Of a stretch of DNA of 32,000 bases, positions 4,468-31,877 are shown piece after piece. The stretch comes from Coprobacillaceae bacterium (GTDB taxonomy: Bacteria > Bacillota_I > Bacilli_A > Erysipelotrichales > Coprobacillaceae): contig OY776328.1 of the NCBI GenBank assembly GCA_963675515.1, positions 2,250,001-2,282,000 on the forward strand, written 5' to 3'. The notes below the pieces were generated by a model. That model did not search any database, had not been told where the DNA came from, and saw only the letters and a program-made list of their open reading frames with translations. The position numbers and the translations under genes were made by a program. Position 1 is the stretch's first letter, and each line of letters opens with the position of its first letter.

Positions 4468-4473
4468 ATACGT

Positions 4474-10001: not shown

Positions 10002-10019
10002 TTTTCTAATCGATTTTTT
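9987..10019. terminator. Bidirectional terminator shared by the convergent ppk1 and V-ATPase D genes
   Basis: AAAAAAA-TCGATTAG-tttt-CTAATCGA-TTTTTT, a perfect palindrome with an A run on one side and a T run on the other. Both stop codons (TAG 9999-10001 on plus, TAA 10000-9998 on minus) lie inside the left arm of the stem. Confidence 0.65.
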
Positions 10020-10618
10020 CTTTCCTTGATTACTTTTTGACGGGTGAATTCTTCCCGTTCCTTTTCCTCAAGAGATTCGGATATGAATTTATTAGTCTCC
10101 TTCAAGCGAGGAATCGTGATATTCTGCAAGGCATTGGCCCGTTTCTGGGTCCTGCGGATCGCATCGGCCAGACGGTAAACACTGTTTTCAACTTCGGCCA
10201 ACAGAATGGTAAGTTCCTTGACGCGGTAGAAACACTGGTAAGCGTAATCCACCCGAGAGTTTGATCTTTCCATATTGTAGAAGCAAACCAGAGGCGCTTT
10301 GGCGTAATTGATTTTGGGAATCTCCACCCCCATTACCGAACGGTAGGCGATGGTGATTCCAGTGTCAATAGGTGACTCATTGACCAAAGAGGCAATCACC
10401 CCTAAGGAAATGTTGGCGTCCTGCAAAGCATCATAGGCATCCTGATAGGATGATGTGATCTGGTCGCGGATTACCTTGACCGAATCGATCAGCTGCATCA
10501 TTTCCTTGATCAGGATGTTCCTTTTTTTGTCCAGCAAATCATAGCCGACCGTAGCCAGCTGAAGTGATTTCTTATTAGCAAGCAAGTTCCCCTTGGTGGG
10601 TACAACCTTCATCGCCAT
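9998..10618 (-). CDS. ntpD: V/A-type ATP synthase subunit D
   Basis: 206 aa coiled-coil protein starting MAMKVVPTKGNLLANKKSLQLATVGYDLLDKKRNILI, a typical subunit D N-terminus. It is the last gene of the A-B-D triplet. Confidence 0.85.
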   Translation of the reverse strand: MAMKVVPTKGNLLANKKSLQLATVGYDLLDKKRNILIKEMMQLIDSVKVIRDQITSSYQDAYDALQDANISLGVIASLVNESPIDTGITIAYRSVMGVEIPKINYAKAPLVCFYNMERSNSRVDYAYQCFYRVKELTILLAEVENSVYRLADAIRRTQKRANALQNITIPRLKETNKFISESLEEKEREEFTRQKVIKERKNRLEN

Positions 10619-10620
10619 AA

Positions 10621-12063
10621 TTATTCACCTACTTTTTCTAATTCTTTGATGATCTTTGTCTGCTTGATATTGAAGCGTTCCAACGCCTGTTCATGATTAT
10701 AGAATTTGTCAAGCAAGGTGTTGTCAAGGCGGTCCAGGGCGGTTTTAGGCAAGACTGAAAGCAAGTCCCAAGCCAAATCCAATGTGTATTCGATCGAACG
10801 GTTGTCCTCGAATCCCTGGTTGACGAATTGAGCTTCGAAAAGACGACCGAACTTGACGTATTCCTTGTCAAGATCAGACAGTTCGTCCTCCCCGATTACC
10901 GACATCAGCGACTTTACTTCGCTGACGTGGTTATAGCAGGCAAACAGCTGGTTGGCAACATCCTGGTGGTCATAACGGGTATAGCCTTCCCCGATACCAT
11001 CCTTCATCAGACGTGACAGTGACGGCAATACTCCGACCGGCGGATATATACCCGCACTGTTGAGGTCGATATCCATTGAAATCTGACCTTCGGTGATGTA
11101 TCCGGTCAAATCGGGAACCGGATGGGTAATGTCATTGTTTGGCATCGTCAGGATTGGAATCTGGGTAACAGATCCTTTGGCGTATTTGGAAATCCCCGCT
11201 CTTTCATAAAGTGATGCCAGATCCGAATACAGATACCCCGGGTATCCTTTACGACCTGGGATTTCACCTGTAGAAGACGAGAATTCACGCAAGGCTTCAC
11301 AGTAAGAAGTCACGTCAGTATAGATAACCAAAACGTGCATGTCTTCCTCGAAAGCCAGATATTCAGCTGCTGTAAGAGCGCATCTAGGCGTCAGGATTCT
11401 TTCAATGATCGGATCGTTGGAAATGTTCATGAACATTACAACCCGGTCCATGATTCCCGCTTCCTTGAAGCTTCGTTTGAAGTAATCCGCGACGTCGTTG
11501 GTAACCCCCATAGCCCCAAAAACAACCGCGAACCCTTGACCGTTGTCTTGGGCTACTTTGGCCTGTTTTACGATTTGGACTGCAAGCTGGTTGTGTGGCA
11601 ATCCGGAAACCGAGAAGATCGGCAACTTCTGCCCCCTGATAAGGGTGGTCAGACAGTCGATGGTTGAAACACCAGTATTGATGTAGTCACGTGGGTAAAC
11701 ACGTGATACCGGATTTAGCGGCAGGCCGTTGATGTCCATTGACTTGCTCGCATAAACCTGTCCCAGGCCATCGATAGGTTTTCCAGCCCCATTGAAGACC
11801 CTTCCCAGGATCTCTTTGGAAACCGGAAGTTCCATCGGGTGCCCGGTAAGGCGGGTCTGTGAATTGGTGAGCGAAAGCTCGAAGGTTCCTTCAAAGACCT
11901 GGATAACGACTCTGTTTCCCTGGATTTGGACAATCCGGCCATTACGCATGGTGCCGTTATCGAGATGTAGTTCGACCATTTCATCGTAGCTAGCGTTTTC
12001 AACGTTATCCAAAACTACCAATGGTCCATTTATTTCATTTAAACCGACATATTTCAGACTCAT
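10621..12063 (-). CDS. ntpB: V/A-type ATP synthase subunit B
   Basis: 480 aa. The beta-barrel N-terminus, a nucleotide-binding fold without a canonical P-loop (FGAMGVTNDVA), and motifs such as GYPGYLYSDLASLYERAG and PNNDITHPVPDLTGYITEGQI fit subunit B. Confidence 0.9.
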   Translation of the reverse strand: MSLKYVGLNEINGPLVVLDNVENASYDEMVELHLDNGTMRNGRIVQIQGNRVVIQVFEGTFELSLTNSQTRLTGHPMELPVSKEILGRVFNGAGKPIDGLGQVYASKSMDINGLPLNPVSRVYPRDYINTGVSTIDCLTTLIRGQKLPIFSVSGLPHNQLAVQIVKQAKVAQDNGQGFAVVFGAMGVTNDVADYFKRSFKEAGIMDRVVMFMNISNDPIIERILTPRCALTAAEYLAFEEDMHVLVIYTDVTSYCEALREFSSSTGEIPGRKGYPGYLYSDLASLYERAGISKYAKGSVTQIPILTMPNNDITHPVPDLTGYITEGQISMDIDLNSAGIYPPVGVLPSLSRLMKDGIGEGYTRYDHQDVANQLFACYNHVSEVKSLMSVIGEDELSDLDKEYVKFGRLFEAQFVNQGFEDNRSIEYTLDLAWDLLSVLPKTALDRLDNTLLDKFYNHEQALERFNIKQTKIIKELEKVGE

Positions 12064-12072
12064 TTTATCCCC

Positions 12073-13821
12073 CTAAGCTACTGATTGGATTGCCTGATCG
12101 ATTTCTTTGATATAGCCATCAAGCAATTCAATATTATCGTTTGGAACATCGTATTTCATTTTTACAATCTTATCGAAGATTCCGGTTTTAACCAATTGGG
12201 AAACAACGCGACCGCTGCTTACCGCCTGGTTCGAACGGTTGTACAAATGAATGATGACTTCCATCATTTTCAACTGTTTAGCCATTGGGACATATGTGTC
12301 ATCCTTGTGGAAGGCATTTTGTTGCAGGTAACCGACCCGGATGATGCGGGCAACTTCGATTATCAGTTTTTGGTCTTCAGGCAGGACATCAGGTCCCATC
12401 AGGTTGACGATTTCAAGCAGCTTGGCTTCTTCTGCGAGCAAATATGCCAATATCTGGCGGTCTTTGACCCAGTTTTCGCTGACATTTTCATCCAGCCAAG
12501 AGCTCAGGTCTAGGACATAATCCGAATATGACTGCGTCCAGTTGATAGCGAAGTAGTGACGGGCATAAGCCAGCGATTTGTCCAAGGCCCAGAAACAACG
12601 GACGAAACGTTTCGTGTTTTGGGTTACCGGTTCCGAGAAATCGGCACCTTGAGGCGAAACAGCTCCGATGATCGTTACCGACCCCTGGCTGCCATTAAGA
12701 GTTTCCATGTAACCGGCACGTTCGTAGAATTGGGAAAGACGTGAAGGAAGGTACGCCGGGAACCCTTCTTCGGCCGGCATTTCTTCAAGACGTCCTGAAA
12801 TTTCACGCAAAGCTTCAGCCCAACGTGAAGTCGAGTCGGCCATGATTGCCACGTGATATCCCATGTCACGGTAGTATTCAGCCAGAGTAACTCCGGTATA
12901 GATGGAAGCTTCACGGGCCGCTACTGGCATGTTTGAGGTGTTGGCAATCAACACTGTCCGGTCAGTCAACGGCCGGTTTGATTTCGGGTCTATCAACTCC
13001 CCAAATTCTTCAAGAACCTGGGTCATTTCGTTTCCACGTTCCCCACATCCGACATAAACGATGATATCGGCATCGCACCATTTGGCGATCTGATGCTGGG
13101 TCATTGTCTTACCGGTACCAAATCCACCCGGGATTGCCGCCGTACCGCCTTTGGCGATCGGGAACAATGTGTCGATTACCCTTTGTCCGGTGACAAGAGG
13201 CATCGCGATAGGAAGCCTTTCCTTGATTGGACGGGCAATCTTGATCGGCCATCTTTGCATCAGGGAAATCTCATGGATTTTCCCGTTTTCATCTTCCAAT
13301 TTGACCAATGTCGTTTGGACGTTGTATTGGCCGTTTGCCACAACTTCAACAACTTTCCCTGAGATGTTTGGTGGAACCATTGATTTGTGGGTGATCAGCG
13401 GAGTTTCCGGGCAGGTTGCGATAATCGCACCGCTTGCCAGCTCGTCACCGATTGCGACCTGGATTGTGACATCCCACATTTTTTCCAGATCCAAAGATGG
13501 AACATTGGATCCGGCTTCGATAAAGGCCCCCGATTGTTCTTCCAGGTCTTTTAGCGGTCTTTCGATTCCGTCGAAGATATTGGTGATGATTCCGGGACCT
13601 AATGTCGCCGAAATCGGTGATCCTGTTGATAAAACTGGCTCTCCGGGTTTTAATCCAGTGGTCGTTTCATATACCTGGATCGTTGTGAACCTGTCATTGA
13701 TCGAGATTACTTCCCCCATCAATTGAGTGTGTCCGACGTAAACCATTTCCAACATTTGGAATGTTTTCGAGTCTTTTACTTTAACAACGGGTCCATTGAT
13801 TGAATAAATTACATCGCTCAT
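12073..13821 (-). CDS. ntpA: V/A-type ATP synthase catalytic subunit A
   Basis: 582 aa with Walker A GGFGTGKT, plus ADSTSRWAEALREISGRLEEMPAEEGFPAYL and the non-homologous insert region typical of A subunits. Confidence 0.92.
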   Translation of the reverse strand: MSDVIYSINGPVVKVKDSKTFQMLEMVYVGHTQLMGEVISINDRFTTIQVYETTTGLKPGEPVLSTGSPISATLGPGIITNIFDGIERPLKDLEEQSGAFIEAGSNVPSLDLEKMWDVTIQVAIGDELASGAIIATCPETPLITHKSMVPPNISGKVVEVVANGQYNVQTTLVKLEDENGKIHEISLMQRWPIKIARPIKERLPIAMPLVTGQRVIDTLFPIAKGGTAAIPGGFGTGKTMTQHQIAKWCDADIIVYVGCGERGNEMTQVLEEFGELIDPKSNRPLTDRTVLIANTSNMPVAAREASIYTGVTLAEYYRDMGYHVAIMADSTSRWAEALREISGRLEEMPAEEGFPAYLPSRLSQFYERAGYMETLNGSQGSVTIIGAVSPQGADFSEPVTQNTKRFVRCFWALDKSLAYARHYFAINWTQSYSDYVLDLSSWLDENVSENWVKDRQILAYLLAEEAKLLEIVNLMGPDVLPEDQKLIIEVARIIRVGYLQQNAFHKDDTYVPMAKQLKMMEVIIHLYNRSNQAVSSGRVVSQLVKTGIFDKIVKMKYDVPNDNIELLDGYIKEIDQAIQSVA

Positions 13822-13835
13822 ACAATTTCCCCTTC

Positions 13836-14432
13836 CTATTTGATTATCAAGCCTGAATTTTTAGTGAAGTATGCTTTTTGGTCTTCAAGGATAAAACTCA
13901 ATGAATTATCGATGACGACATTTGTCTTCGGGTTCAACAGAATGAATCCTCCGATAGTCAATTTTTCGCTGGCAATGACTTCAGCTTTCAATCCGTAGGC
14001 GCTCAATATTTTAGCTTCGTATTTTTTGTCTTTTTCACTGACCAGGATCTGGGCGTCCTCAAAACCGTAATTTTGGGCCGCCTCCTTTATCTTGGATAGC
14101 AAGAATTCTTCGTATTTCCCACTGTTTGTGAATTCAATCAGTTTAGCTCTGGCTCCTTCAAAAACCGTCTTGACATAACCATCACGCAGGCCAATTAGAT
14201 CCTGGCGTTGTTTGGTCGCATCCGTCGCACTCGCAACAGTCGATTGCAATTGAAGTGCCGTAAGTTCTTTTTCAAATCGAGCTTGAACTTCTTTGGAAAC
14301 TTCGGCTTTTATTTCCTCTTCGGCATTGTCTCTAAGCGCCTTTGCTTCTTCTAAAAGTCTTGCCTCTTGAGCGGCTGCTTCACGTTCAATCTCTTCTTTC
14401 ATGTAAAGAAATACTTGATCATTATTTGGCAT
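13836..14432 (-). CDS. ntpE: V/A-type ATP synthase subunit E (peripheral stalk)
   Basis: The N-terminal half is a charged coiled coil and the C-terminal half is globular (KLTIGGFILLNPKTNVVIDNSLSFILE), as in subunit E. I chose the ATG at 14432 (AGGAG 8 nt upstream) rather than the GTG at 14435. Confidence 0.7.
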   Translation of the reverse strand: MPNNDQVFLYMKEEIEREAAAQEARLLEEAKALRDNAEEEIKAEVSKEVQARFEKELTALQLQSTVASATDATKQRQDLIGLRDGYVKTVFEGARAKLIEFTNSGKYEEFLLSKIKEAAQNYGFEDAQILVSEKDKKYEAKILSAYGLKAEVIASEKLTIGGFILLNPKTNVVIDNSLSFILEDQKAYFTKNSGLIIK

Positions 14433-14442
14433 CACATTACTC

Positions 14443-14751
14443 CTATAGTTTCACCCCAACTGCTTCGGATACATATTTATCGATGGTCTCACCGATTTTT
14501 GATTCGCCATGGCGATCGGGTATCTCAACAATTAGAGGCTGACGTTGTTTTAATTTGATTTGTGAGATAACATCAGGTGCTAGCTCAATAAGTTTTGTCG
14601 TAATCAGGATGATCCCAATCGATCGGTCCTTGATTTTTTCTTCAAGCAGTTCCAGAAATTCACGTCTTTCATGGACCACTTCGCCTTCAATACCTACTAA
14701 CCTTAGCCCAACTTGAGTATCCACGTTATCACTAAGTAAATAGAATTTCAT
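14443..14751 (-). CDS. V/A-type ATP synthase subunit F
   Basis: 102 aa, MKFYLLSDNVDTQVGLRLVGIEG...IGIILITTKL, the characteristic subunit F pattern and size. Confidence 0.75.
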   Translation of the reverse strand: MKFYLLSDNVDTQVGLRLVGIEGEVVHERREFLELLEEKIKDRSIGIILITTKLIELAPDVISQIKLKQRQPLIVEIPDRHGESKIGETIDKYVSEAVGVKL

Positions 14752-14761
14752 TGGTAGCTCC

Positions 14762-15196
14762 TTATAATGAGTTGATGATCAGGATTGAAATCAATAGACC
14801 GTAGATGGCAACCCCTTCACCCAAGGCAACGAAGATCAATGAACGCCCGAAGTTTGCAGGGTTTTCAGAGAATGCTCCGATTGCTGCCGATGCAGCTGAT
14901 GATACGGCAATCCCGGCACCCAAAGCAGCCAGACCAGTTGACAATGCCGCTGCGACGAATCCCAAACCTTGTGCGATTGTACCAGTCATCGGATTTGCAG
15001 TTTCAGCAGCCAATACGCCGTTGGACATGATTGAGAACGTGAATACCAGAGCAACTGCTCCAAAGAAACCAAGCACATGAGTTGCCAGACGGAATTTTGC
15101 CGATTTCACATCGCATTTTCCTTGGAACACTTTGACTAAAGGTAAAGACAACAATACAACTGCAACTAAAGGTAAGATAAATTCAACTAATTTCAT
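14762..15196 (-). CDS. ntpK: V/A-type ATP synthase proteolipid subunit K (c-ring); the N-terminal half is atypical
   Basis: 144 aa. The C-terminal hairpin GLGFVAAALSTGLAALGAGIAVSSAASAAIGAF...RSLIFVALGEGVAIYGLLISILI is a c-subunit hairpin with one conserved Glu. The N-terminal ~70 aa are hydrophobic but lack the Gly/Ala-rich c-type pattern. Confidence 0.8.
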   Translation of the reverse strand: MKLVEFILPLVAVVLLSLPLVKVFQGKCDVKSAKFRLATHVLGFFGAVALVFTFSIMSNGVLAAETANPMTGTIAQGLGFVAAALSTGLAALGAGIAVSSAASAAIGAFSENPANFGRSLIFVALGEGVAIYGLLISILIINSL

Positions 15197-15216
15197 TTTA
15201 AGATTCTCCTCGTATG

Positions 15217-17103
15217 TTATTTATTGACAATATTTTTAAATGGCATACCATCGCCATCATAATATCTTGAAAACATTTCATAAAACTCAAGCCGCAATAC
15301 CTGGATTCCGACGATAAGACCTTCAAGTCCCATGACGAAAAGGTTTCCAAATATCAAGACAAGATAAAAACCGATACCGCCAAACATTTCCGCGATTGTA
15401 TAAACCACGAGCATCATTCCGGCATGGGAAAGGACGAAGCCTCCGACCCGCAAGAACGACATTGTGTTCGCCAAAAATGTAAGCATGATTTCAAAAAGTT
15501 CGAAGAATGCTTCGGTAAGACCCATCGCCATTCCTTCAGGGAAAAGCTTGTGGCCTTCGATCTTGCGTTCGATGATTTCCTTGAAAAACATCAAAAAGAA
15601 TGTGACGGTAGCCAGGATTTTCAAAATCGGTGCAATGCCCAGATCAATTCCGAACATTCCCAAAGCCAGCAACAAGACGGAAACATAGAAAACCAGACCG
15701 GAGATGCAGTTCTGGGAAAGAACCATCTCGACATAGCGTTTGCGCCTCAGGTTGGTGATGATCGCAATCGACATCGAAACGACAATCAGCGCGATCCCCA
15801 GCCCGACCGATAAGCCAAGCAAAGTCATGGTGTTATCCGATTCCATCGGCAGGAATATCGGCGTAAGGATTTCTTCGGACCCGAAAACCGAACCGAAGAT
15901 GATCCCGAAAATGACCGAAACGATGGCTACCCGCATCCCGATTCCTGCCAGAGCGTTCTTGGTTTTGCGGTACATAAGAGTTGCGACGATACCAATCAGG
16001 AGTCCCTGACCGACATCGGCGAACATGATCCCGAAAAGCAGCGAATATGAAAGCGCCAGGTAACTTGTCGGATCGATATCCCGATAAGAAGGCACTCCGT
16101 ACATCTCGACAAAGATCCTAAACGGTTTGGAAAACCAGTTCTCGGTAAGCTTGGTCGGAGGTGTCAGCCGGACATCGCTGTCGGCCGGACGGACTGAAAC
16201 ATGGACGTTGTCAAAACGTTCAAAATTGGCCTTGAACTCATCGGCCTTGCTTTTTTCGATAAAGCCGGTGATCGCCAGATGGTCACCCACCACATAGACA
16301 TAGCGTTGCATGATGAAAATCGCATTAAGATGCTTTACAACTGTATAGATCCGGTTGATTTCCTCGAAATTGTTCTGGTACAGTTTCTGGATCCGGTTTT
16401 GATATTTGAATATGTTTTTTTGAGAAAGGTTGGTCTCTTCCTGAATCTCCTCGACCGCCTTTTTTGGATCGCCATGGGCGAATGAGGGGATGTGGACCCG
16501 TTCGAACAACAATGAAGAGAACACGTTGTCAATTTCAGGGGCATCATTTGGTGTTGTAACATACATGCACCATGTGTATTCATCTACCTCATGGAACTGT
16601 CTGATAAAAAACGGCAAACCGTCATAGTAGCGAAGCTTGGACATGTTTTTGGTCGGCAGCTTCCCGAAGCGGATTTGCAGATATTTTGTCGTAAATAGTT
16701 CGTCGAAGTTCACATCCATTTCGACTACGTTGCGGATATGGATGATCGCCTCGCCGTTTTCCTTGACAATTCTTTCAAGCTTGTCGATAACAGCACCGTA
16801 CTTGTCGACTTCAGTGATGAAGTTTTCAACATAGTGCTTTGCTGTGATCATGTTGATCCGGTTGGAAATGGGACTTTGTTCAACCAGGTCGAATTTGTAT
16901 TTCTTTGCTGCTGTTTCAATTTTGTTTAGCAGATCTTCGTATATGTTCTCATCAGTCCAGGCTGCCAGGCTTTTGACATTGGCAGTGAATTTAGAAGCGG
17001 GCTCCAAATGAATTTCATTGTAATTCAACAGATTCACAAGCAATTCATTGTGGCTGCGACGGTCAAAATTGATATTTACGAGATTTAATTTTGTAATTGC
17101 CAC
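15217..17103 (-). CDS. ntpI: V/A-type ATP synthase subunit I (a-type stator subunit), full length
   Basis: 628 aa with a GTG start at 17103 and a GGGAGG RBS 7 nt upstream. It has a cytoplasmic N-terminal half and then multiple TM helices. The C-terminal channel motif NTMSFLRVGGFVLSHAGMM carries the conserved Arg. Confidence 0.85.
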   Translation of the reverse strand: MAITKLNLVNINFDRRSHNELLVNLLNYNEIHLEPASKFTANVKSLAAWTDENIYEDLLNKIETAAKKYKFDLVEQSPISNRINMITAKHYVENFITEVDKYGAVIDKLERIVKENGEAIIHIRNVVEMDVNFDELFTTKYLQIRFGKLPTKNMSKLRYYDGLPFFIRQFHEVDEYTWCMYVTTPNDAPEIDNVFSSLLFERVHIPSFAHGDPKKAVEEIQEETNLSQKNIFKYQNRIQKLYQNNFEEINRIYTVVKHLNAIFIMQRYVYVVGDHLAITGFIEKSKADEFKANFERFDNVHVSVRPADSDVRLTPPTKLTENWFSKPFRIFVEMYGVPSYRDIDPTSYLALSYSLLFGIMFADVGQGLLIGIVATLMYRKTKNALAGIGMRVAIVSVIFGIIFGSVFGSEEILTPIFLPMESDNTMTLLGLSVGLGIALIVVSMSIAIITNLRRKRYVEMVLSQNCISGLVFYVSVLLLALGMFGIDLGIAPILKILATVTFFLMFFKEIIERKIEGHKLFPEGMAMGLTEAFFELFEIMLTFLANTMSFLRVGGFVLSHAGMMLVVYTIAEMFGGIGFYLVLIFGNLFVMGLEGLIVGIQVLRLEFYEMFSRYYDGDGMPFKNIVNK

Positions 17104-17118
17104 AAATAATCCTCCCTT

Positions 17119-18477
17119 CTAAAATTCCACTTTTTTGCTTGTCATACCTCGAACTAGCGCCAGAGCCACAGTCAACAGGATGATTCCGATAAAGAAATAG
17201 AAAACTTTATGGATTGGCTGGAGCGGCGACATGATGATGGCCGGATAGAGGTGATAAGTGTCGAAGACAGTACCGTAGAACAGCCCGCCGACAAATCCGC
17301 ATCCTCCCAAAGTCAACAAAGCGCGACCGATATTTGTGGTCCGATGGCCAAACAGGACTCCCACAACCATGATCAGGGCACCCCAGCCAAGGTCTCCTAG
17401 GAAAAGGGCCGCAAGCAATGAGTAGCCGATTGCCAAAAACAAAGTCACGTCAATTTTATCTTTGTGTCTTGGTTTCAGGATACCCTCAAAAGACTTCACG
17501 AAGAAGTTGTTGTGGATGATTACCGGCGGTTCGATACCCCGGGAATTGTAAATGTTTTTAGGTAATTGAAGAATTCTGACTCCTTCAATCCCTTTGAAAA
17601 TACCTTCAACTTCGAGAATCGACAATGTCGAGAACGCATAAATGGCGTTCTTGTTCGAATAATCCACCACATAGCGGGCCTGGTCGAACAATAATTTCAA
17701 GTTGTAGATCTTGGTAAAGGCGCTTAGCACCTGACTTGAATATTCCTGCGAGATCACATCGATCCGTTCGTTGATGTGGCTGATGTAGTTTTTCATCGCC
17801 TCGCATTCTGTCTTCAGTTCGCTCACCGCGCTGTCCAAGGTACCATGGGCGAAATCCGGAAGGTTTACCACCTCGAAGGAAACCGAATCGAAAATGTTGT
17901 CGATTTCCGCGATATCTTTGGTCAAGCCGGTGTAAATACCCCATACATAATCCTTGTTTTGCGAATACTCCTTGAAAATAAACGGATATTCATTGTAGTA
18001 TTTCAATTTTTCATATTCACTTGCAGGAATTCGGCCAAAGCGACATTTGATAAACTGAGTTGCTTCGATTTCATCCAAGTTGATGTTTTGATTAGAAATT
18101 TCATTCAGGATCTGAATTGCGCTGAAGTTTTCCTCGCGGACAGCGACAATCTCGTCGCGGATCTTGACTGCCAGGTCCAGTTTTTCACTGACCTCGTCAA
18201 TCAGGTTGTTTGCGAACGTAATGCTTAGCTGTTCGCCATGATATTCTTCAGTCACCTTTTCAAGACCCAGGTTGTCAAGCAAATGATACATCTTTTCCAA
18301 TGTATCATTGTAAGGATTTTCGTGATCCATCACGGTAACCCCTTTTACGTTGTTTGCCAACAGTTTGGAATCAAGAGGAAACATCTTGTCCTCGTTTTTC
18401 TTAATCAAAATCAAAACTTGCATCAAATCAGAAGAATTAAAGGTCACATTATATAAGTGCGTTGGTACTATTGCCAT
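17119..18477 (-). CDS. Subunit-I-like paralog lacking the C-terminal proton-channel half
   Basis: The 452-aa protein aligns by eye with the neighbouring subunit I. Example: RFGRIPASEYEKLKYYNEYPFIF...DYVWGIYTG...EIDNIFDSVSFEVVNLPDFAHG versus RFGKLPTKNMSKLRYYDGLPFFI...EYTWCMYVT...EIDNVFSSLLFERVHIPSFAHG. Only about 3-4 C-terminal TM helices are present. The LRVGG...SH Arg motif is absent. Confidence 0.65.
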   Translation of the reverse strand: MAIVPTHLYNVTFNSSDLMQVLILIKKNEDKMFPLDSKLLANNVKGVTVMDHENPYNDTLEKMYHLLDNLGLEKVTEEYHGEQLSITFANNLIDEVSEKLDLAVKIRDEIVAVREENFSAIQILNEISNQNINLDEIEATQFIKCRFGRIPASEYEKLKYYNEYPFIFKEYSQNKDYVWGIYTGLTKDIAEIDNIFDSVSFEVVNLPDFAHGTLDSAVSELKTECEAMKNYISHINERIDVISQEYSSQVLSAFTKIYNLKLLFDQARYVVDYSNKNAIYAFSTLSILEVEGIFKGIEGVRILQLPKNIYNSRGIEPPVIIHNNFFVKSFEGILKPRHKDKIDVTLFLAIGYSLLAALFLGDLGWGALIMVVGVLFGHRTTNIGRALLTLGGCGFVGGLFYGTVFDTYHLYPAIIMSPLQPIHKVFYFFIGIILLTVALALVRGMTSKKVEF

Positions 18478-18486
18478 GACTTTCTC

Positions 18487-19515
18487 CTAACTATATATTA
18501 ATAACGATTCGATACTTGCCCCATCGCGGCCGTAGCGGATGCCTTCGATGATGTGGATCAGGTTGTTGATCTCTATTTTGGCAAGCATTGTGTATGCCAG
18601 ATAGGCCACAGCATCATCACTGGTCAGATACAGGAAATGACGGCACATGTGATATCGAACAAAAGCTACCGACTCTTCGATTGAAGTATCGGGTGCTATA
18701 TGCGAAACGTCACCATAACGGATTCGCTCTTTTATCATCGAGTACAATGTATCGATGTTTTTTGCTTCCAGAAGCTCTTGATAACTCTCTTTGGAAATCC
18801 GGGAATATTTCAAAAACAGCGACTGCATGATCACTTCATTCGCTTCATCCGGGAAATACGTCTTGTAACGTACAATCTTCGCGAGATTGCGAAGGTCGAT
18901 TGACATCGACAAAATGGCGAGAAGATCAGATTTGGTCTTGTTTGAGAAGTTGTTTTTGACCGCCTTGAAATACGTCCGGTAATAGAACTCCATAAACTCC
19001 TTGTTCAACTTGTTGAAGTTGATTGGCATATCGAAATCGATGCCATCAATCAGGAAAGAATATTTGGTGTTCTTTAAAAATGCTACTAGTTCTTTATGAG
19101 TATCCACATTAATTAAACCGTGCAGATCGAAACTCGCATGATCCACAACATATTGCGACACATTCAACGAAAATGCCTCAGGCATTGCTGTGATGGTGGC
19201 AATTTTTTCAAGGATTACATTAATCTCGATACCCATAATTTCCATGTAGTAAAACTGTTTTTTCTCTTTCGGTGCAAAACGAAGCAGCCCGGCACAGCGG
19301 CGGTAATATTCCTGATTTAGAATCGATTCTACTTCATGGCGGCGGATAAGCCTTGGATTGGCATCCTGGAACGCCTCACTGTAAGAAGATTTCTGTTTCA
19401 GATAAGTTACGACATCACCGATTGACTGTTTGCGCGCCAATTCCATATATGCATCTTGAAGAATCCGATTTCCATACCGTGCCTTGGCTTTGGTACTTAA
19501 TACATTAGATGACAT
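18487..19515 (-). CDS. ntpC: V/A-type ATP synthase subunit C (eukaryotic d-type)
   Basis: 342 aa, all-helical. The N-terminal pattern KAKARYGNRILQDAYMELARKQSIGDVVTYL, the size and the operon context fit subunit C. Confidence 0.65.
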   Translation of the reverse strand: MSSNVLSTKAKARYGNRILQDAYMELARKQSIGDVVTYLKQKSSYSEAFQDANPRLIRRHEVESILNQEYYRRCAGLLRFAPKEKKQFYYMEIMGIEINVILEKIATITAMPEAFSLNVSQYVVDHASFDLHGLINVDTHKELVAFLKNTKYSFLIDGIDFDMPINFNKLNKEFMEFYYRTYFKAVKNNFSNKTKSDLLAILSMSIDLRNLAKIVRYKTYFPDEANEVIMQSLFLKYSRISKESYQELLEAKNIDTLYSMIKERIRYGDVSHIAPDTSIEESVAFVRYHMCRHFLYLTSDDAVAYLAYTMLAKIEINNLIHIIEGIRYGRDGASIESLLIYS

Positions 19516-19527
19516 ACAGCTCTCCTT

Positions 19528-19836
19528 CTAGGATATACAACGTTCTACCAGTTCGTCTATCCAAGCATCCTTGTTTTGATTGAACTTAAGTTCCAATTCA
19601 TTTTTGGAACTGTCGTAATCTTTTGTCTTGGCAGAAGTCTGCGCTAAAAGATTGCTTTGTAATTCAATTTTTTGCTTTTCAAGTTCTGCAGCTTTTTCAG
19701 CCCATAATTTTTCATAAAGTTCTTTTCTGCATGTCTGCATGTCATCAGTAGCATGAAACTTCTGATTTTTTGCCTGCTCGACACGATTAGCACATTCATG
19801 ATCAATCCGGACCAATTCTTGAATGATATTATCCAT
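19528..19836 (-). CDS. Small coiled-coil protein, probable V/A-ATPase peripheral-stalk subunit (G/H-like)
   Basis: 102 aa, charged and helical (ELYEKLWAEKAAELEKQKIELQSNLLAQ). It is the first gene of the operon, and G-like subunits commonly sit there. The call rests on context and composition only. Confidence 0.4.
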   Translation of the reverse strand: MDNIIQELVRIDHECANRVEQAKNQKFHATDDMQTCRKELYEKLWAEKAAELEKQKIELQSNLLAQTSAKTKDYDSSKNELELKFNQNKDAWIDELVERCIS

Positions 19837-21754: not shown

Positions 21755-21788
21755 AAAAAAAACAATGGTTTTTTGCCATTGTTTTTAT
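21755..21788. terminator. Bidirectional terminator between the convergent M24 peptidase and ATP-cone genes
   Basis: AAAAAACAATGG-ttttttg-CCATTGTTTTT with A and T runs on both sides. The minus-strand gene's stop codon (21785-21787) lies in the T tract. Confidence 0.65.
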
Positions 21789-22888
21789 TTGCTTTCGATA
21801 TCAATTTTATCATCAAGACCTTCCAGGAAATACGGCGAATGTTGTAATTCCTTTCCTTTGGCATTGATCAGGTCAAGCTGGTTGACGGTTATGTTATAAG
21901 CCAGGTATTGCCGGTAATCCCCCAACATCCTGACACTGTCATCGAACAGCTGGCGGGTTGCCTTGTTTAAAAAATCCTTAAGGCGGTTTTCCAGGCCATC
22001 CAGGTCAATTCCAAGATCAAAGCTGTTTAGTTCCAGCAGTTCGACATCAATCCCGATATTGTAGACGACATTGGCGTTGGAAACATCATCCACAAAAGCG
22101 ATATTGTTCCGGCCAAGCATCCTGCAGGCATGATCATCAAGACCGCCTCTTTCAATCTCCAGCCGGTTTTCAAGAAACATTTCGAGACTGTCAAGAACCA
22201 GACCCATCTTTTTGGCCACCTTGGGATCATCCACTAGCGAAACCATGAAACTGTCGAAGTTGCAAAGTTGCAGGGGACCTTGCTGGAACTTGTCAAAAAA
22301 GATGACAACCTGAAGAAATTTATTCAGGCCGACATCGCTGTCGCTTTGTTCGATCTTCTGACAATCGATGACATATTGGTAGATCAGATCATCAAGATAT
22401 GCCATATTGTTGATTGTCAGGATTTTTTGCTCCAAGGCTTTGGATACAAAACAGTCAAAGTGGCTCGACTGGTTGTAGCTTGCCAGGCTGGTCTCACCTA
22501 GAATCCGGGCCCGGGCCTTGGGCGAATTGTAAAAGCTGTTTTTTGGCTGGTATGACTGGAGCTGTTCGAATGAACCGCCTAGAGTCACAGCCATCTTCCG
22601 CTGGTTCGACCTTTTCTCCCGGTAAAGGATGTAGGCCTTGGCAGCCTTGATATAGTTCTTCTCAATCAGCACTTCCTCGACAATATCCTGGACAAATTCC
22701 ACAGTCGGAACTCCGACGTCCATCTCCTCGATTATCTTGACCACCTCGTTGGCGAGCCGCTCTGGGATCTGTTTGTCATACGTCTTTATATTATCACTTG
22801 CCTGAAATGATTTGTCGATCGCAATGGCGATCTTGTCAGGCTCAAAAGGCACCAGCGACCCGTCCCGTTTCAATATCAGCTTAATCAT
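21785..22888 (-). CDS. ATP-cone domain protein with an uncharacterised ~270-aa C-terminal region
   Basis: The N-terminus MIKLILKRDGSLVPFEPDKIAIAIDKSF...KAAKAYILYREKR matches the ATP-cone pattern (KRDG..v.Fd..KI) known from RNRs and NrdR. The rest has no motif I recognise. I set the start at the ATG at 22888 (GGAGGG RBS 6 nt upstream). It overlaps the upstream gene by 8 nt (ATGATTAA). Confidence 0.7.
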   Translation of the reverse strand: MIKLILKRDGSLVPFEPDKIAIAIDKSFQASDNIKTYDKQIPERLANEVVKIIEEMDVGVPTVEFVQDIVEEVLIEKNYIKAAKAYILYREKRSNQRKMAVTLGGSFEQLQSYQPKNSFYNSPKARARILGETSLASYNQSSHFDCFVSKALEQKILTINNMAYLDDLIYQYVIDCQKIEQSDSDVGLNKFLQVVIFFDKFQQGPLQLCNFDSFMVSLVDDPKVAKKMGLVLDSLEMFLENRLEIERGGLDDHACRMLGRNNIAFVDDVSNANVVYNIGIDVELLELNSFDLGIDLDGLENRLKDFLNKATRQLFDDSVRMLGDYRQYLAYNITVNQLDLINAKGKELQHSPYFLEGLDDKIDIESK

Positions 22889-24530
22889 CGATATCCCTCC
22901 AATTTCCACAAATCAATTGTACACGATAATCTTTGAAGATGCCAACGATATAATCATTCCCGACTTTCTCCACCAGGGAGTAGCGGAAAAGCAGTTCCTG
23001 GTCATGGCCCAACTCGACCAGATGATGCAAGACTCGCTTGGCTTCGCTGGTGGCTAGGGTCGGCTCGTAAAAACGTTTTGGCTTGACTTTGGCGTTCAGG
23101 AAGTAATCCATCACCAGCTCCTTGAACAGGTCATGATTTTCACCCTGCATGAATTCCATTATGTAGCTGTAGAGTTCATGAAGCTGATATCCCATCCGTT
23201 TGAATTCATGGTTCCGGTAGTAAACCCCCAGCTTCAAAAAGAAATCGAACATCGACGGGTAGATCTCAAATACCCGATTCATGGTATTTTCAAAGCGGCC
23301 GGAGTTCCAGTATTTTTCCAGCATATCTTCGACCAGGTGGATCTTGGAGATATCATTCTCGCTTAGATAATCCGATTTGGTTATTTCATAGGGAGCGCTT
23401 TGGTCAAATTCATAACCGTATTCCTGGTAGTTTTTTCGCAAACTGGTCCCCCGCAGCAGTTTCAAGAAGCCAAGCTGCAATTCCTTTGGCTTCAAGGCGA
23501 AAACGTCATCGAATGACTTCTTGAACCGGTCGAGCTTTTCCAGGGGCAAACCGGCTATAAGATCGAGATGCAACACGATGTTGTGGGCCTTTTGCAAGGT
23601 GGAAATGACCTGCTCTAACCTGGTAAAATCCTGATATCGTTTGACAACCAGATTTGTCGGCTCATAGGTTGACTGGATTCCGATTTCCAGGCGGACCAGG
23701 TTGGCTGGCACCCGATTGACCAGAAAGTCGAGTAGTCCTTGATCGAGCACGTCACCGTTGATCTCGAACTGGAAAACAACTCCGGAGTCTTTTTTGGAAA
23801 CGATGTATTCCAGGATTGCCAAAGCATGCTCGAATTTGGCATTGAACGAGCGGTCAAGGAACTTGACGGTCTTCACTCCGCTTGATATTATGCCATCAAG
23901 TTCCCTTTTAAGATATTCCAAGGAGAAAAAGCGCAGACCCACTTCCAACGAGGAAAGGCAGTACTGACATTGATAAGGACAGCCCCGGCTTGTTTCGAAA
24001 TACAGGATCCGATTTTTCATTTCGGCCATATCCTTTTCAACCAGATAGGGAGAATCAAGGCTTTCAAGCCAGCTTAGATCGACCAGCCTTGTCTGATTGT
24101 AGTCCTTCCTGTGTCGAGTCGATATCCCCGGGATCTTAACTTCTGCTTCGGTGGCCAGGCAGTCGAGAAGCTGTTTTAGCGCAATCTCCCCTTCGCCTGA
24201 AATCAGGTAGTCGATTGGGAAACTGTCCATGAAATGATCGACATCATAGCTTACTTCCGGTCCCCCGACGATGATGTTTACATCGGGGAAACGATCTTTG
24301 ATCATGGTGACCAGCGCCATGGTCTTTTCAACGTTCCAGATATAGACTGAAAAGACCAGGTTTTTTGGCCGAAGCGCCATCAGGCTTTCCAGAATTTTTT
24401 CACTGTCGTCCTTTATAGTGTATTCCACAAAATCGACATCGTGAAAATCCTTTGATGCCACGTAAAGAAGTCGCAAAGCCAGGGCCTTATGGATGAATTT
24501 TGAGTTTAAAGTAGTAATTATTGTTTTCAT
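22881..24530 (-). CDS. B12-binding-domain-type radical SAM protein with a long helical C-terminal extension (DUF4080-like)
   Basis: 549 aa. The N-terminal Rossmann-like region (VFSVYIWN...IIVGGPE) resembles the cobalamin-binding domain of class B radical SAM enzymes. The radical SAM cluster motif is SRGCPYQCQYC. The ~170-aa C-terminal domain fits my recollection of the DUF4080 family. Confidence 0.8.
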   Translation of the reverse strand: MKTIITTLNSKFIHKALALRLLYVASKDFHDVDFVEYTIKDDSEKILESLMALRPKNLVFSVYIWNVEKTMALVTMIKDRFPDVNIIVGGPEVSYDVDHFMDSFPIDYLISGEGEIALKQLLDCLATEAEVKIPGISTRHRKDYNQTRLVDLSWLESLDSPYLVEKDMAEMKNRILYFETSRGCPYQCQYCLSSLEVGLRFFSLEYLKRELDGIISSGVKTVKFLDRSFNAKFEHALAILEYIVSKKDSGVVFQFEINGDVLDQGLLDFLVNRVPANLVRLEIGIQSTYEPTNLVVKRYQDFTRLEQVISTLQKAHNIVLHLDLIAGLPLEKLDRFKKSFDDVFALKPKELQLGFLKLLRGTSLRKNYQEYGYEFDQSAPYEITKSDYLSENDISKIHLVEDMLEKYWNSGRFENTMNRVFEIYPSMFDFFLKLGVYYRNHEFKRMGYQLHELYSYIMEFMQGENHDLFKELVMDYFLNAKVKPKRFYEPTLATSEAKRVLHHLVELGHDQELLFRYSLVEKVGNDYIVGIFKDYRVQLICGNWRDIDD

Positions 24531-24541
24531 TTTATTCCTTT

Positions 24542-24565
24542 AAAAAAAGCCTGAATAATCAGGCT
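24542..24565 (-). terminator. Rho-independent terminator after the VanY-like gene
   Basis: On the minus strand, AGCCTGA-ttat-TCAGGCT followed by 7 T. It overlaps the VanY-like stop codon and ends about 10 nt before the radical SAM RBS. Confidence 0.65.
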
Positions 24566-25797
24566 TATCGTGCAACCACTGTCGGCAAAATCCCGTTTTC
24601 CAGACAGTATTGTTCAAATGTGATATTCGCTTCAGTTATTTCCTGGGCAACCTCGACCCCGACATACCTGAAATGCCACGGTTCATGGGCGATTCCAGTC
24701 AGTTCGCTGGTCGATTCGGGATAACGGTTGATGAAACCATATTTGGCCGCATTAGCCAATACCCACTTATATTCAGCTGTATCACCAAAAGTGATCTTCG
24801 TACCATCGACAACCGACTGGCTCGTCAAATCGATTCCAAGACCGGTCTGATGTTCGCTGGCTCCTGGCAAGGCAACATATTGGGAAGCGTACAATCCGCC
24901 GTAGCGACTTTCAAAATCCTGATATGTCTGGGACTGGACTGTATACGAGCGATAGCCGCTGTTGAACACCAGGTCCAACCCTTCCGCCTTGGCATCTTCG
25001 TACATCTGTTTCAAGGCATCGGCCACAACCTGGCGGACCATAGGGTTTTGACAATCAGGAGCGATTGGCATCGGTGCTTCAACCAGGTCACTTGGTTCAT
25101 ATGAGCTTTCAAGATAGAATCCGGCTTTTACCAGTGTCAGGATCTCATCGGGATTGGTGATTGTATAGCCCCGGCCGCTATAGGCGCTGGTTGAAAGAAT
25201 GAACGGATAGTTGACTATTCCAACCGTGTAGGTCGGATTGTCGTTTTGCTTGTCAGCTTCGATATAGGCTTCCATGTTCTTGACCATGTAGCCATCGACT
25301 TCCAGATACTCTTCGATATCGGTGGCACTCAGGTCGTTTTCGATAAGATACTCGAAATCGCTGATGGAAACATTATTGCCAACCATCTCCCAGATTCCAG
25401 CATCATCGAATCCAAGATCAATCAATTGAGAATAGATCTCACCATTGAGTTCATCGACATAGCTGACGATTTCAGCTGGTTCGATTTCCGGGAATTGCCC
25501 GTAGTAACGTTCGTAATCATCGTAATTTACCGGAGTCGCTTCCAGCTCCTGCCAGGTATCGAAATTTTCCATGAAATCCGCCGCCAATATCTCGTTTTCA
25601 GCTTCGCTTTCCATAGCGACAATCTGGTTGGCCTGGGTGAAACTATAGCCCTTGACCAAGGCCCGGATCCGGTTGAAATTCAAAAATACGACAGCAGCGA
25701 CAATCACCACAACCAGGGCGATTATCCCAAAAACCTTAAAATTGTTGTTGCTTCTTCTACCATATGAATAGCTATATGAATTGCTTTTTCTTAGCAC
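24565..25797 (-). CDS. M15B (VanY/LdcB-like) D-alanyl-D-alanine carboxypeptidase, membrane anchored
   Basis: 410 aa with a GTG start at 25797 and an AAGGAGA RBS 8 nt upstream. A TM helix (FGIIALVVVIVAAVVFL) is followed by an acidic spacer. The C-terminal motifs are SGYRSY, SEHQTGLGIDL and EPWHFRYVG. Confidence 0.8.
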   Translation of the reverse strand: MLRKSNSYSYSYGRRSNNNFKVFGIIALVVVIVAAVVFLNFNRIRALVKGYSFTQANQIVAMESEAENEILAADFMENFDTWQELEATPVNYDDYERYYGQFPEIEPAEIVSYVDELNGEIYSQLIDLGFDDAGIWEMVGNNVSISDFEYLIENDLSATDIEEYLEVDGYMVKNMEAYIEADKQNDNPTYTVGIVNYPFILSTSAYSGRGYTITNPDEILTLVKAGFYLESSYEPSDLVEAPMPIAPDCQNPMVRQVVADALKQMYEDAKAEGLDLVFNSGYRSYTVQSQTYQDFESRYGGLYASQYVALPGASEHQTGLGIDLTSQSVVDGTKITFGDTAEYKWVLANAAKYGFINRYPESTSELTGIAHEPWHFRYVGVEVAQEITEANITFEQYCLENGILPTVVAR

Positions 25798-30583: not shown

Positions 30584-31621
30584 CTAAAGACTGTTTGGTG
30601 CCTGGTCGATACCCATTGACTCTTCGATACCGTACATTATGTTCATGTTCTGGATTGCCTGGCCGGCCGCACCTTTGACCAAATTGTCCATCGCTCCTAC
30701 TACTATTATTCTATTACATCTCTGATCGATTTTAAAGTTAATATCGATATAATTCGAGCATCTTACGTTACGGATTTCCGGATACACGCCATCCTTCAAT
30801 ACTCGCAGGAATTTTTCATCTTCATACATCTTGTACGCATTTGCGACGTCTTCTTGACTAACCCCGGCTTTGAGGGTCGCATATGAGGTGGTGAGGATCC
30901 CGCGGTTGATTGGAATGAGATGCGGGGTGAAAGTCACATTGAATTTTTCTTCTCCTGCCCCGTTGAGAATCATCTCGATTTCCGGAGTGTGGCGGTGTGT
31001 GGCTATCCCGTAAGCCTTGACGCTTTCATTCACCTCGCAGAAGAGGTTAGGGATTTTGGCCGAGCGGCCCGCTCCCGAAGTTCCCGAAAGCGCATCGATG
31101 ATGATCGTCTCAGTTTCGATCAATCCCGCCTTTACCAAAGGGTACAGTGAAAGTGACGAGCAGGTCGGATAGCAACCCGGGTTGGCCAACAGGCGGGCAT
31201 CCTTGATCTTGTCACGGTTGATCTCGCAAAGACCGAAAACAGCATCTTCCATCATGTCCCAGCTGGGATGTCCACATTGGTACCACTGTTCATAGACATC
31301 CTGTTGATCAAGACGGTAGTCGGCTGACAAATCGATGACCTTCACCTTTTCAAGCATTTCCTTGGAAATCATTTTCGAAGCCACACCGTGTGGGGTCGCG
31401 AAGAACACCACATCGACCTGGTCGAGATAGTCTTCCAGGTTGTCACTGATCAGCTGGTCATCCACTATATTGAAATAGCTGCCATAGATATCACTGAAAT
31501 GTTCCTTTGCATATGAACGTGATGAAAGCCACACAATCCTAGCTTCCTTATGATTCAACAATAACCGCACCAATTCATTCCCACCGTATCCGGTCGCACC
31601 TATTATTCCTACTTTTACCAT
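30584..31621 (-). CDS. argC: N-acetyl-gamma-glutamyl-phosphate reductase
   Basis: MVKVGIIGATGYGG (NAD(P)-binding) and the catalytic Cys context ANPGCYPT. I chose the ATG at 31621 (AGGAGA RBS 7 nt upstream) rather than 31645. Confidence 0.92.
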   Translation of the reverse strand: MVKVGIIGATGYGGNELVRLLLNHKEARIVWLSSRSYAKEHFSDIYGSYFNIVDDQLISDNLEDYLDQVDVVFFATPHGVASKMISKEMLEKVKVIDLSADYRLDQQDVYEQWYQCGHPSWDMMEDAVFGLCEINRDKIKDARLLANPGCYPTCSSLSLYPLVKAGLIETETIIIDALSGTSGAGRSAKIPNLFCEVNESVKAYGIATHRHTPEIEMILNGAGEEKFNVTFTPHLIPINRGILTTSYATLKAGVSQEDVANAYKMYEDEKFLRVLKDGVYPEIRNVRCSNYIDINFKIDQRCNRIIVVGAMDNLVKGAAGQAIQNMNIMYGIEESMGIDQAPNSL

Positions 31622-31643
31622 TTTCTTTTCTCCTTTAAAATAC

Positions 31644-31672
31644 AAAAAAACGCCTCCAAAAAAGAGACGTTA
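31644..31672 (-). terminator. Attenuator terminator of the argCJB T-box leader
   Basis: On the minus strand, AACGTCTC-tttttt-GGAGGCGTT followed by 7 T. Its 5' arm lies directly 3' of the T-box sequence. Confidence 0.7.
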
Positions 31673-31877
31673 TTAACGCGATACCACTCTACTTGCCATC
31701 AGTCGACCTGATGACCTCTCTCACTGATAAGGGCAGTTACCCGAAAGTTATACTTGGTTTCCAACTTTCCTCTCCAAAATGCGCTTGGGATTAATTCCGT
31801 CACTGACCTTGCACCGTCGTCAGCTCGCTTTAGACTTCCTTAATCTTACTCTTTTTGTCATCGAGTTCAATTTATTT
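31646..31877 (-). promoter_or_regulatory. T-box riboswitch leader, probable Arg (CGC) specifier
   Basis: Read on the minus strand. Stem I elements are AGAGTAA, AGCGAG and GGTGCAA. The helix GATTAA/TTAATC is followed by CCAAG-CGC-A (CGC at 31783-31781). An F-box-like CCCTTA is present. The T-box sequence AGAGTGGTATCGCG lies at 31690-31677, followed by the terminator. Confidence 0.75.

Follow-up and report, generated by a model that had tools for sequence, protein, structure and literature searches.

An ATP-cone protein encoded downstream of a DUF4080 radical SAM gene in Coprobacillaceae is probably a truncated NrdD descendant kept by selection

Why should a gene for an ATP-cone protein begin within the last codons of a radical S-adenosylmethionine (SAM) gene? 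The question is raised by a stretch of 32,000 nucleotides (nt) from a Coprobacillaceae bacterium (assembly GCA_963675515.1, contig OY776328.1, positions 2,250,001 to 2,282,000), which as a whole is here called the window. Both genes under study lie on its minus strand. The upstream one encodes a B12-binding radical SAM protein of 549 amino acids (aa; hereafter rSAM), the downstream one a protein of 367 aa that opens with an ATP-cone. A first-pass annotation, made from the sequence alone, had suggested a nucleotide-sensed radical SAM system, the layout of which loosely mirrors the NrdD/NrdG pair of anaerobic ribonucleotide reductase (RNR). The best explanation according to our analysis, which we hold with a probability of roughly 0.62, is that the 367-aa protein arose from nrdD by truncation, has lost its catalytic function, has been kept by selection and likely serves as a sensor of ATP/dATP; its place beside the rSAM would be a matter of inherited gene order. 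The gene and its parts are located as follows:

21785-22888, minus strand: gene of the NrdD-derived ATP-cone pseudoenzyme, 367 aa plus stop codon (open reading frame (ORF), synteny, hhalign, ratio of non-synonymous to synonymous substitutions (dN/dS))
22607-22879, minus strand: ATP-cone domain, residues 4-94 (Pfam PF03477, E 3e-21, 76.2 bits vs. a cutoff of 25.8)
22232-22594, minus strand: connector and first part of the NrdD core, residues 99-219, catalytic motifs replaced (hhalign; PRK07111, residues 1-167)
21788-22231, minus strand: remodelled C-terminal alpha/beta region, residues 220-367 (no sequence relatives found beyond the family; AlphaFold (AF2) model)

The chromosomal position of the gene already points to its origin. 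In all loci with a gene of the 367-aa type, which besides the window are L001, L002, L003 and L007, the gene order is RpiR, fumarase alpha, fumarase beta, VanY, rSAM and ATP-cone gene. The latter is directly followed by convergent PepM24 and V-ATPase genes in the window, L002 and L007, and an esterase insert lies 3' of it in L001 and L003. These inserts of the 371-aa sub-clade consist of one or two genes (~877 aa, PF00756) before PepM24 (L001:9312-11945; L003:8953-13650), hence the slot tolerates insertions. In relatives, the slot after the rSAM holds the following:

Thomasclavelia ramosa (L004): full-length NrdD (767 aa, ATP-cone and NRDD) and NrdG, 153 nt after the rSAM, then convergent PepM24
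L009: a GH1 gene, then nrdDG
L011: a GATase_7 gene, then nrdDG
Coprobacillus (L010): empty, straight to convergent PepM24
Longibaculum (L005): empty

The T. ramosa arrangement is repeated in 8 of the 80 metagenomic rSAM loci that were surveyed, with a full-length nrdD in seven of those. Given the intact nrdD-nrdG in the slot of relatives, the ATP-cone ORF occupies the former nrdD position and its adjacency to the rSAM is explained by descent, which takes away the ground for a system mirroring NrdD/NrdG. Because the whole neighbourhood is conserved, adjacency within the window clade says nothing on a functional link, and the co-localised orthologues are not independent evidence of linkage either, since all of them come from one small, fully syntenic clade.

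The protein itself confirms this descent. Its residues 1-118 are 47% identical to residues 1-116 of T. ramosa NrdD, and the NCBIfam NrdD model PRK07111 covers residues 1-167 only, the best NrdD model reaching 71 bits vs. a cutoff of 764. In the profile-profile comparison (hhalign) of the 367-aa family with 12 NrdDs, residues 1-219 align to NrdD 1-239 with a probability of 99.9 (E 1.3e-32); the alignment takes in the Q..G....NFD motif, and the stretch ALEQKILTINNMAYLDDL comes to face the AHxxGxIHIHD...CC region of NrdD. What had been described as a faint resemblance to NrdD after the cone is thus real homology. For residues 220-367 (215-367 were probed), no sequence similarity to NrdD was detected by permissive hhalign or by a PDB profile search. 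The structure check recommended in the first-pass annotation for the C-terminal region was run with a cone-less AlphaFold model of residues 101-367 (predicted local distance difference test (pLDDT) 68, predicted TM-score (pTM) 0.66, core near 90). Its top 18 Foldseek matches in the PDB are all class III RNRs (E 4e-5 to 3e-3, TMq 0.38-0.51), namely the NrdDs of T. maritima, T4 and S. thermophilus. With ~7 strands and flanking helices, the model would represent roughly half of the ten-stranded RNR barrel. Synteny, hhalign and the cone-less model thus bear out one of the options named at the outset, an NrdD-derived protein.

The ATP-cone had been recognised correctly, and it looks intact. Residues K7, R8, I20, Q67 and Y86 align gap-free to K19, R20, I32, Q79 and Y98 of StNrdD (9D3X), which are the nucleotide contacts of site 1 in that ATP-cone (PMC12662201), and they are invariant across the six-member 367-aa family. 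The best PDB sequence match of the cone is that of Leeuwenhoekiella blandensis NrdB (5OLK, E 6e-10). The ATG start of the ORF is favoured over a GTG at 22909 by the N-termini of homologues and of NrdD. Besides the cone, no Pfam domain was found in the protein, and its NCBI label reads "ATP cone domain-containing protein" only. The family is tiny, with no more than six full-length cluster representatives in a set of 5.8 billion proteins (43-100% identity); phmmer with residues 100-367 against 1.84 billion representatives returned only the protein itself and one relative, and the gene is carried by 2 of 185,579 species genomes, both uncultured Erysipelotrichaceae/Coprobacillaceae metagenome-assembled genomes. 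Its base composition is native (GC 46%, GC at third codon positions (GC3) 0.58), like that of the neighbours. ATP-cones as such are less rare outside NrdA/D/J and NrdR than the first-pass annotation had assumed, which regarded them as almost exclusive to these proteins: many proteins of ~446 aa join a uridine-kinase/PRK domain (PF00485) to an ATP-cone (e.g. P0028, P0035-P0039, P0079), and others are NrdB-cone fusions (PF00268).

The catalytic equipment of NrdD is gone. In place of the AHxxGxIHIHD motif and the CC pair (C178), the protein has ALEQKILTINNM and IYQY, so that the invariants H159, G162, H165, H167, D168 and C178 (T. ramosa numbering) are all substituted, and Pfam NRDD (PF13597) gave no match to the 367-aa protein at E<=1. 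Moreover, the protein ends before the thiyl-radical finger-loop Cys (C445, CCRLR), the Zn site and the glycyl-radical domain; its C-terminus reads ...GLDDKIDIESK, without RxxGY, vs. ...RIRRITGYLVG... in T. ramosa NrdD. As noticed before, it contains neither a glycyl-radical motif nor a Cys cluster; only C146 of its four Cys is invariant in the family. With the N-terminal catalytic motifs replaced and the distal catalytic regions missing, the 367-aa protein cannot be a reductase. When T. ramosa NrdD and NrdG were searched by tblastn in six frames against the gene region, the window and five syntenic loci, only the N-terminal 106-118 aa matched, which excludes a frameshifted nrdD pseudogene or a nearby second half; neither a second half of NrdD nor nrdG was found in the window or within 10 kb at any syntenic locus. 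No DNA of the nrdD 3' half or of nrdG can be left, because the stop codons of the ATP-cone and PepM24 genes are only ~31 nt apart. Compared with NrdD (T. ramosa; StNrdD 9D3X/9DAU; P. copri 8P28), the window protein shares the chromosomal slot, an ATP-cone with the site-1 residues, a homologous connector and first core segment up to about residue 219 and, as predicted, an NrdD-like fold for the rest, whereas it is half as long and lacks the thiyl-radical Cys loop, the Zn site, the glycyl-radical domain and an accompanying nrdG. Judged from its sequence, it is homologous to NrdD, yet it has none of the features by which an enzyme would be assigned to that family.

Nevertheless, the truncated gene is not decaying. 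We estimated dN/dS (omega) according to Nei-Gojobori, with L001/L003 as the only unsaturated pair (dS 0.18), for which omega is 0.07 for the whole gene, 0 for the cone, 0.06 for residues 99-219 and 0.12 for residues 220-367. For saturated pairs, whole-gene values were 0.09-0.13, and the C-terminal region reached up to 0.19. At identities as low as 43%, the ORFs still span 367-372 aa, and invariant residues cluster in the cone, in the connector, for which disorder is predicted, and in the C-terminal motif S-x-D-x-GID-xx-GLE-x-R-xxx-FLN. As far as codon substitutions tell, the 367-aa gene is under purifying selection along its whole length. The first-pass annotation had named a decayed fragment of a normal nrdD as the finding that would overturn its claim; the protein does descend from a fragment of nrdD, but the decay did not turn up.

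A second observation of this kind comes from other Coprobacillaceae (L022-L037, L040, L046, L094-L096), in which the same slot holds an ATP-cone protein of 172-174 aa. Its genes are found, for example, at:

L026:7674-8192, gene of the 172-174-aa ATP-cone protein
L030:7670-8188, gene of the same family
L094:5001-5525, gene of the same family
L096:5001-5522, gene of the same family

These proteins consist of an ATP-cone 70% identical to residues 1-106 of T. ramosa NrdD and an unrelated helical tail of ~65 aa. They are populous in gut metagenomes with divergence to 55% identity, and purifying selection is seen here as well (omega 0.15 overall, 0.08 in the cone and ~0.25 in the tail, at dS ~0.8). 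The gene lies 49-64 nt from the rSAM gene and has retained a -10-like box, TATACT, which is also found in front of intact nrdD genes. In a simple neighbour-joining (NJ) tree of the rSAM, i.e. of a single gene, the 172-aa lineage is nested among nrdDG-intact lineages, and the window clade is sister to them; the 367-aa and 172-aa remnants share the cone only. The most parsimonious interpretation would be two separate truncations of one nrdD, each of which kept the cone. The 172-174-aa proteins (L026, L030, L094, L096) resemble the window protein in their origin from the same nrdD, their slot 3' of the same rSAM and a cone under purifying selection, and they differ in a more severe and apparently independent truncation, an own promoter-like element, the lack of an overlap with the rSAM gene and a far larger population.

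Several side observations concern the control regions and integrity of these genes. An element (GA)TATACT(A/T)A, situated ~12-20 nt 5' of the ribosome-binding site (RBS), is common to intact nrdD genes and 172-aa cone genes (L004:7627-7779; L009:8188-8370; L011:8075-8290; L014; L015; L026:7624-7673; L094:4940-5000) and absent from the window junction; it is probably the -10 box of the nrdD promoter. A crude consensus scan detected no convincing NrdR box upstream of nrdD, upstream of the cone genes or in the window. In L027 (6683-7342), a ~40-aa ATP-cone N-terminus is fused in frame to an N-terminal fragment of transketolase, giving an ORF of 219 aa; this disruption of the small cone gene is either a rearrangement or an assembly chimera.

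Taken together, the following history can be proposed. The ancestral order, still present in T. ramosa, would have been VanY, DUF4080 rSAM, nrdD, nrdG and convergent PepM24. In a small Coprobacillaceae clade, deletions would then have removed the distal ~400 codons of nrdD, which encoded the thiyl-radical finger-loop Cys, the Zn site and the glycyl-radical domain, together with nrdG and the nrdD promoter/leader. In the simplest version, the loss of the rSAM stop codon and of ~150 nt of nrdD promoter/leader fused the remnant to the rSAM transcription unit, and as its start codon overlaps the rSAM stop, the remnant would now form the second cistron of this unit, its translation coupled to that of the rSAM. 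What was left comprises the intact ATP-cone, the connector and, as predicted, a remodelled half RNR barrel. The conserved site-1 residues suggest that the cone most likely still binds ATP/dATP. In StNrdD, the cones form dimers in the presence of dATP and shift the connector flap to a new position (PMC12662201). By analogy with NrdD and NrdR, the remnant may act as a nucleotide-state sensor or adaptor, in which cone and connector drive a change of conformation or oligomerisation. As target, the putative remaining RNR/NrdR machinery of the cell appears somewhat more likely than the upstream rSAM, because the cone is common to two independent remnants, one of which is not coupled to the rSAM. A more general version, according to which the NrdD cone has repeatedly been converted to a free-standing ATP/dATP sensor that acts in trans on the remaining RNR, NrdR or the rSAM by nucleotide-dependent cone-cone oligomerisation, is put forward tentatively, and we would rather bet against it; if true, it would define a new class of stand-alone sensors of the deoxynucleoside triphosphate (dNTP) pool.

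A precedent for an RNR subunit that lost its enzymatic function and was retained for another role exists in the inactive large-subunit homologues of betaherpesviruses (M45/UL45). However, those homologues belong to class I, come from viruses, are of full length and carry additional interaction motifs; they share no ancestry with the truncation of a bacterial class III enzyme. Our literature search found no description of stand-alone (NrdD-derived) ATP-cones, of a conserved truncated NrdD or of bacterial RNR pseudoenzymes. The best model for the window protein is NrdR (PMC9110341), which is likewise a non-catalytic protein with an ATP-cone that senses ATP/dATP and changes its oligomeric state; NrdR differs in having an N-terminal Zn-ribbon DNA-binding domain and no RNR core, whereas the window protein has no Zn-ribbon or recognisable DNA-binding domain. 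It is not an NrdR itself: the cone starts at residue 4, CxxC pairs are missing and no NrdR model of Pfam or NCBIfam matched. The NrdB-cone fusion of L. blandensis (5OLK; PMC5794259) similarly illustrates the ATP-cone as a mobile regulatory module that works outside the usual NrdA/NrdD context, but there the cone sits on an active RNR subunit and here on a dead half-core.

Some points weigh against a conserved NrdD descendant with a sensing role of its own. The NrdD ancestry of residues 220-367 is suggested by a predicted model of medium confidence (pLDDT 68) with modest TM-scores. The family cone is 47-51% identical to the NrdD cones of Coprobacillaceae vs. 52-58% to some archaeal RNR cones, over ~100 aa. 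The independence of the two truncations is based on parsimony and the simple single-gene NJ tree. Furthermore, the conserved start/stop overlap would be compatible with a possible functional link to the rSAM.

This last point leads to the strongest competitor, a dedicated two-component system in which the ATP-cone protein acts as ATP/dATP-sensing regulator, scaffold or substrate of the DUF4080 B12-binding rSAM. Its case begins at the gene junction, where the overlap and the RBS had been described correctly:

22881-22888, minus strand: 8-nt stop/start overlap ATGATTAA of rSAM and ATP-cone genes (read from the sequence)
22895-22900, minus strand: GGAGGG, RBS of the ATP-cone gene within the last rSAM codons (read from the sequence)
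22916-22945, minus strand: promoter-like site TTGGCA-18-TACAAT in the 3' end of the rSAM gene (consensus scan only, 10/12 matches; overlaps conserved codons)

The rSAM gene ends with ...GAT GAT TAA, the ATG of the ATP-cone gene (22888-22886) lies inside that string, and GGAGGG sits 6 nt 5' of this ATG. In the window clade, the rSAM is ~8 residues longer than in relatives (...CGNWRDIDD), and these added codons make up the RBS region of the cone gene. The overlap amounts to 8 nt in four loci (window, L001, L003, L007) and to 26 nt in L002; the latter may be an assembly error, because neighbouring genes are split in the L002 assembly as well (PepM24 and V-ATPase subunit I genes at 9137-10854 and 13794-15679, next to a 555-aa rSAM; probably long-read frameshift errors). 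Overlap and in-gene RBS are hence kept in five of five sequenced clade loci despite saturated synonymous divergence, and the ATP-cone gene has apparently lost its own leader, so that its expression is tied to the rSAM. Moreover, both orphan ATP-cone families still lie immediately 3' of the rSAM. The co-transcription geometry is thus among the established properties of the ATP-cone gene, with the promoter-like site at 22916-22945 as a possible candidate for an independent promoter. The string GGAGGGATAT at the window junction is found identically before T. ramosa nrdD; as other nrdD leaders lack it and carry only GGAGG, it is weak evidence for a shared origin.

The two-component proposal also depends on what the rSAM is. 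Its features are:

22881-24530, minus strand: B12-binding/radical SAM/DUF4080 gene, 549 aa (ORF and Pfam)
24168-24512, minus strand: B12-binding (Rossmann-like) domain, residues 7-121 (Pfam PF02310, 54.2 bits vs. a cutoff of 32.1)
23958-23981, minus strand: CPYQCQYC [4Fe-4S]/SAM cluster motif, residues 184-191 (read from the sequence)
23022-23426, minus strand: DUF4080 helical C-terminal domain, residues 369-503 (Pfam PF13311, E 1.9e-27, 97 bits)

Together with the Radical_SAM domain (PF04055, residues 179-342, 54 bits), all three Pfam domains exceed their gathering scores, which verifies the Rossmann-like N-terminus, the cluster motif and the helical C-terminus read from the ORF before. The cysteines of CPYQCQYC are invariant in the alignment of rSAM homologues. 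The N-terminal B12-binding domain and the radical SAM core with CxxxCxxC are those of class B enzymes such as TokK, CysS and the KedN5/PhpK families, and a PDB search returned the class B methylases TokK (77 bits) and CysS as the closest solved relatives. The rSAM differs from these by scores of at most about 80 bits vs. curated cutoffs of 180 to >900 and by the extra DUF4080 C-terminal domain. Among the best 25 of 36 NCBIfam matches, the highest reached 80 bits vs. a cutoff of 700 and all were far below their cutoffs, so that the protein belongs to no functionally characterised subfamily among them; our literature search found no paper mentioning DUF4080. The earlier statement that this B12-binding radical SAM family has no assigned function therefore stands. 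More than 7,900 homologues exist, the top ones from Thomasclavelia, Coprobacillus and Longibaculum.

Against a dedicated pair speaks, first of all, that the position is inherited from nrdD, from which unrelated genes (GH1, GATase_7) can separate the rSAM, and that the slot is empty in Coprobacillus and Longibaculum. In a more distant set of 31 rSAM loci (40-55% identity, each with 2 kb or more of sequence downstream), none had an ATP-cone or NrdD gene within 6 kb, nor was there any recurrent neighbour. The expectation that orthologues of the two genes would be adjacent across genomes hence failed: beyond one clade with conserved synteny, to which the 367-aa family is confined, the rSAM has no ATP-cone neighbour in the 31 distant loci, Coprobacillus and Longibaculum. 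In addition, rSAM homologues number in the thousands vs. about seven for the 367-aa family, and the gene of the 172-aa sibling, 49-64 nt away and with an nrdD-type -10 box, is not translationally coupled. The rSAM, widespread and solitary, is a class-B-type radical SAM enzyme in its own right, of the uncharacterised DUF4080 family, and we regard a dedicated two-component system as unlikely, though it deserves more attention than the other alternatives.

Still less probable is that the ATP-cone gene is a relic without function, a fragment of an nrdD pseudogene whose reading frame has stayed open by chance and which rSAM transcription carries along. Such a fate would suit a truncated gene without any catalytic part from a tiny family limited to one clade; in one assembly (P0247/P0248) the gene is even split into pieces of 176 aa and 167 aa, which is probably a long-read frameshift error, and the related 172-aa gene is disrupted in the L027 contig. 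However, omega of 0.07-0.19 in every region, the non-cone part included, a frame and length preserved to 43% amino-acid identity and the dense invariant residues in cone, connector and C-terminal motif are not what a relic would show, and we consider it very improbable. Finally, the protein could be the N-terminal part of a split NrdD that is still active, its C-terminal half being encoded at another place in the genome. Split nrdD genes do exist (L012, L013), with the second half and nrdG directly downstream, but for the window gene this is hardly credible: in the window and within 10 kb at all syntenic loci both are missing, the invariants of the N-terminal half (AHxxGxIHIHD, C178) are replaced and Pfam NRDD is silent, unlike for true split pieces. 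In L012 (5001-8816), nrdD is split by a LAGLIDADG-type ORF (337 aa + 274 aa + 408 aa), and in L013 (5001-7172) into 259-aa and 457-aa pieces followed by nrdG; the short matches with ATP-cone and NRDD, P0114 and P0069, are true splits with the second half downstream, unlike the window gene.

The remaining features of the window concern the surroundings of the pair:

21758-21786, no strand assigned: bidirectional terminator-like hairpin between the convergent ATP-cone and PepM24 genes
24547-24566, minus strand: terminator-like hairpin AAGCCTGATTATTCAGGCTT with a T-run, inside the 34-nt gap from the VanY stop to the rSAM start

Given the latter hairpin, the rSAM/cone pair may be transcribed apart from VanY, or via read-through. 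Upstream of the rSAM lie VanY, fumarase alpha/beta and the RpiR regulator, and the VanY-rSAM adjacency is conserved within Coprobacillaceae only. The rSAM (22884-24530) matches the phage-defence candidate PDC-M51A of PADLOC over residues 44-406 (158 bits, E 7.5e-47); no characterised class B rSAM matched it as strongly. We treat the match as generic similarity among B12-binding rSAMs, because the gene sits in a conserved housekeeping neighbourhood and not in a defence island; PADLOC was silent for both cone proteins, and a defence system was rejected. Further away, a complete V-type ATPase operon (10621-19836, minus strand) and a polyphosphate kinase gene (7863-10001, plus strand) flank the locus. 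Two T-box leaders were identified (4241-4469 and 31660-31870, both minus strand; Rfam, 132 and 121 bits), one upstream of a DAHP synthase gene, the other upstream of the ORF at 30584-31645, which is apparently argC and heads an argJ/argB cluster.

The window protein is therefore less than the new radical SAM system proposed for it, but the selection signal and the parallel truncation make it more than a pseudogene. For annotation, the case calls for caution, as an apparent operon of an rSAM and an NrdD-like partner is a by-product of gene decay beside an unrelated gene. ATP-cones are usually regarded as modules on active RNR subunits or on NrdR, whereas here an RNR catalytic subunit without its chemistry is conserved for its cone, connector and half-barrel. 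If the 367-aa and 172-174-aa proteins sense ATP/dATP in trans, they would offer a simple, natural minimal system for cone-driven allostery, and the control of the dNTP pool in gut Firmicutes would include a level that has so far gone unrecognised.

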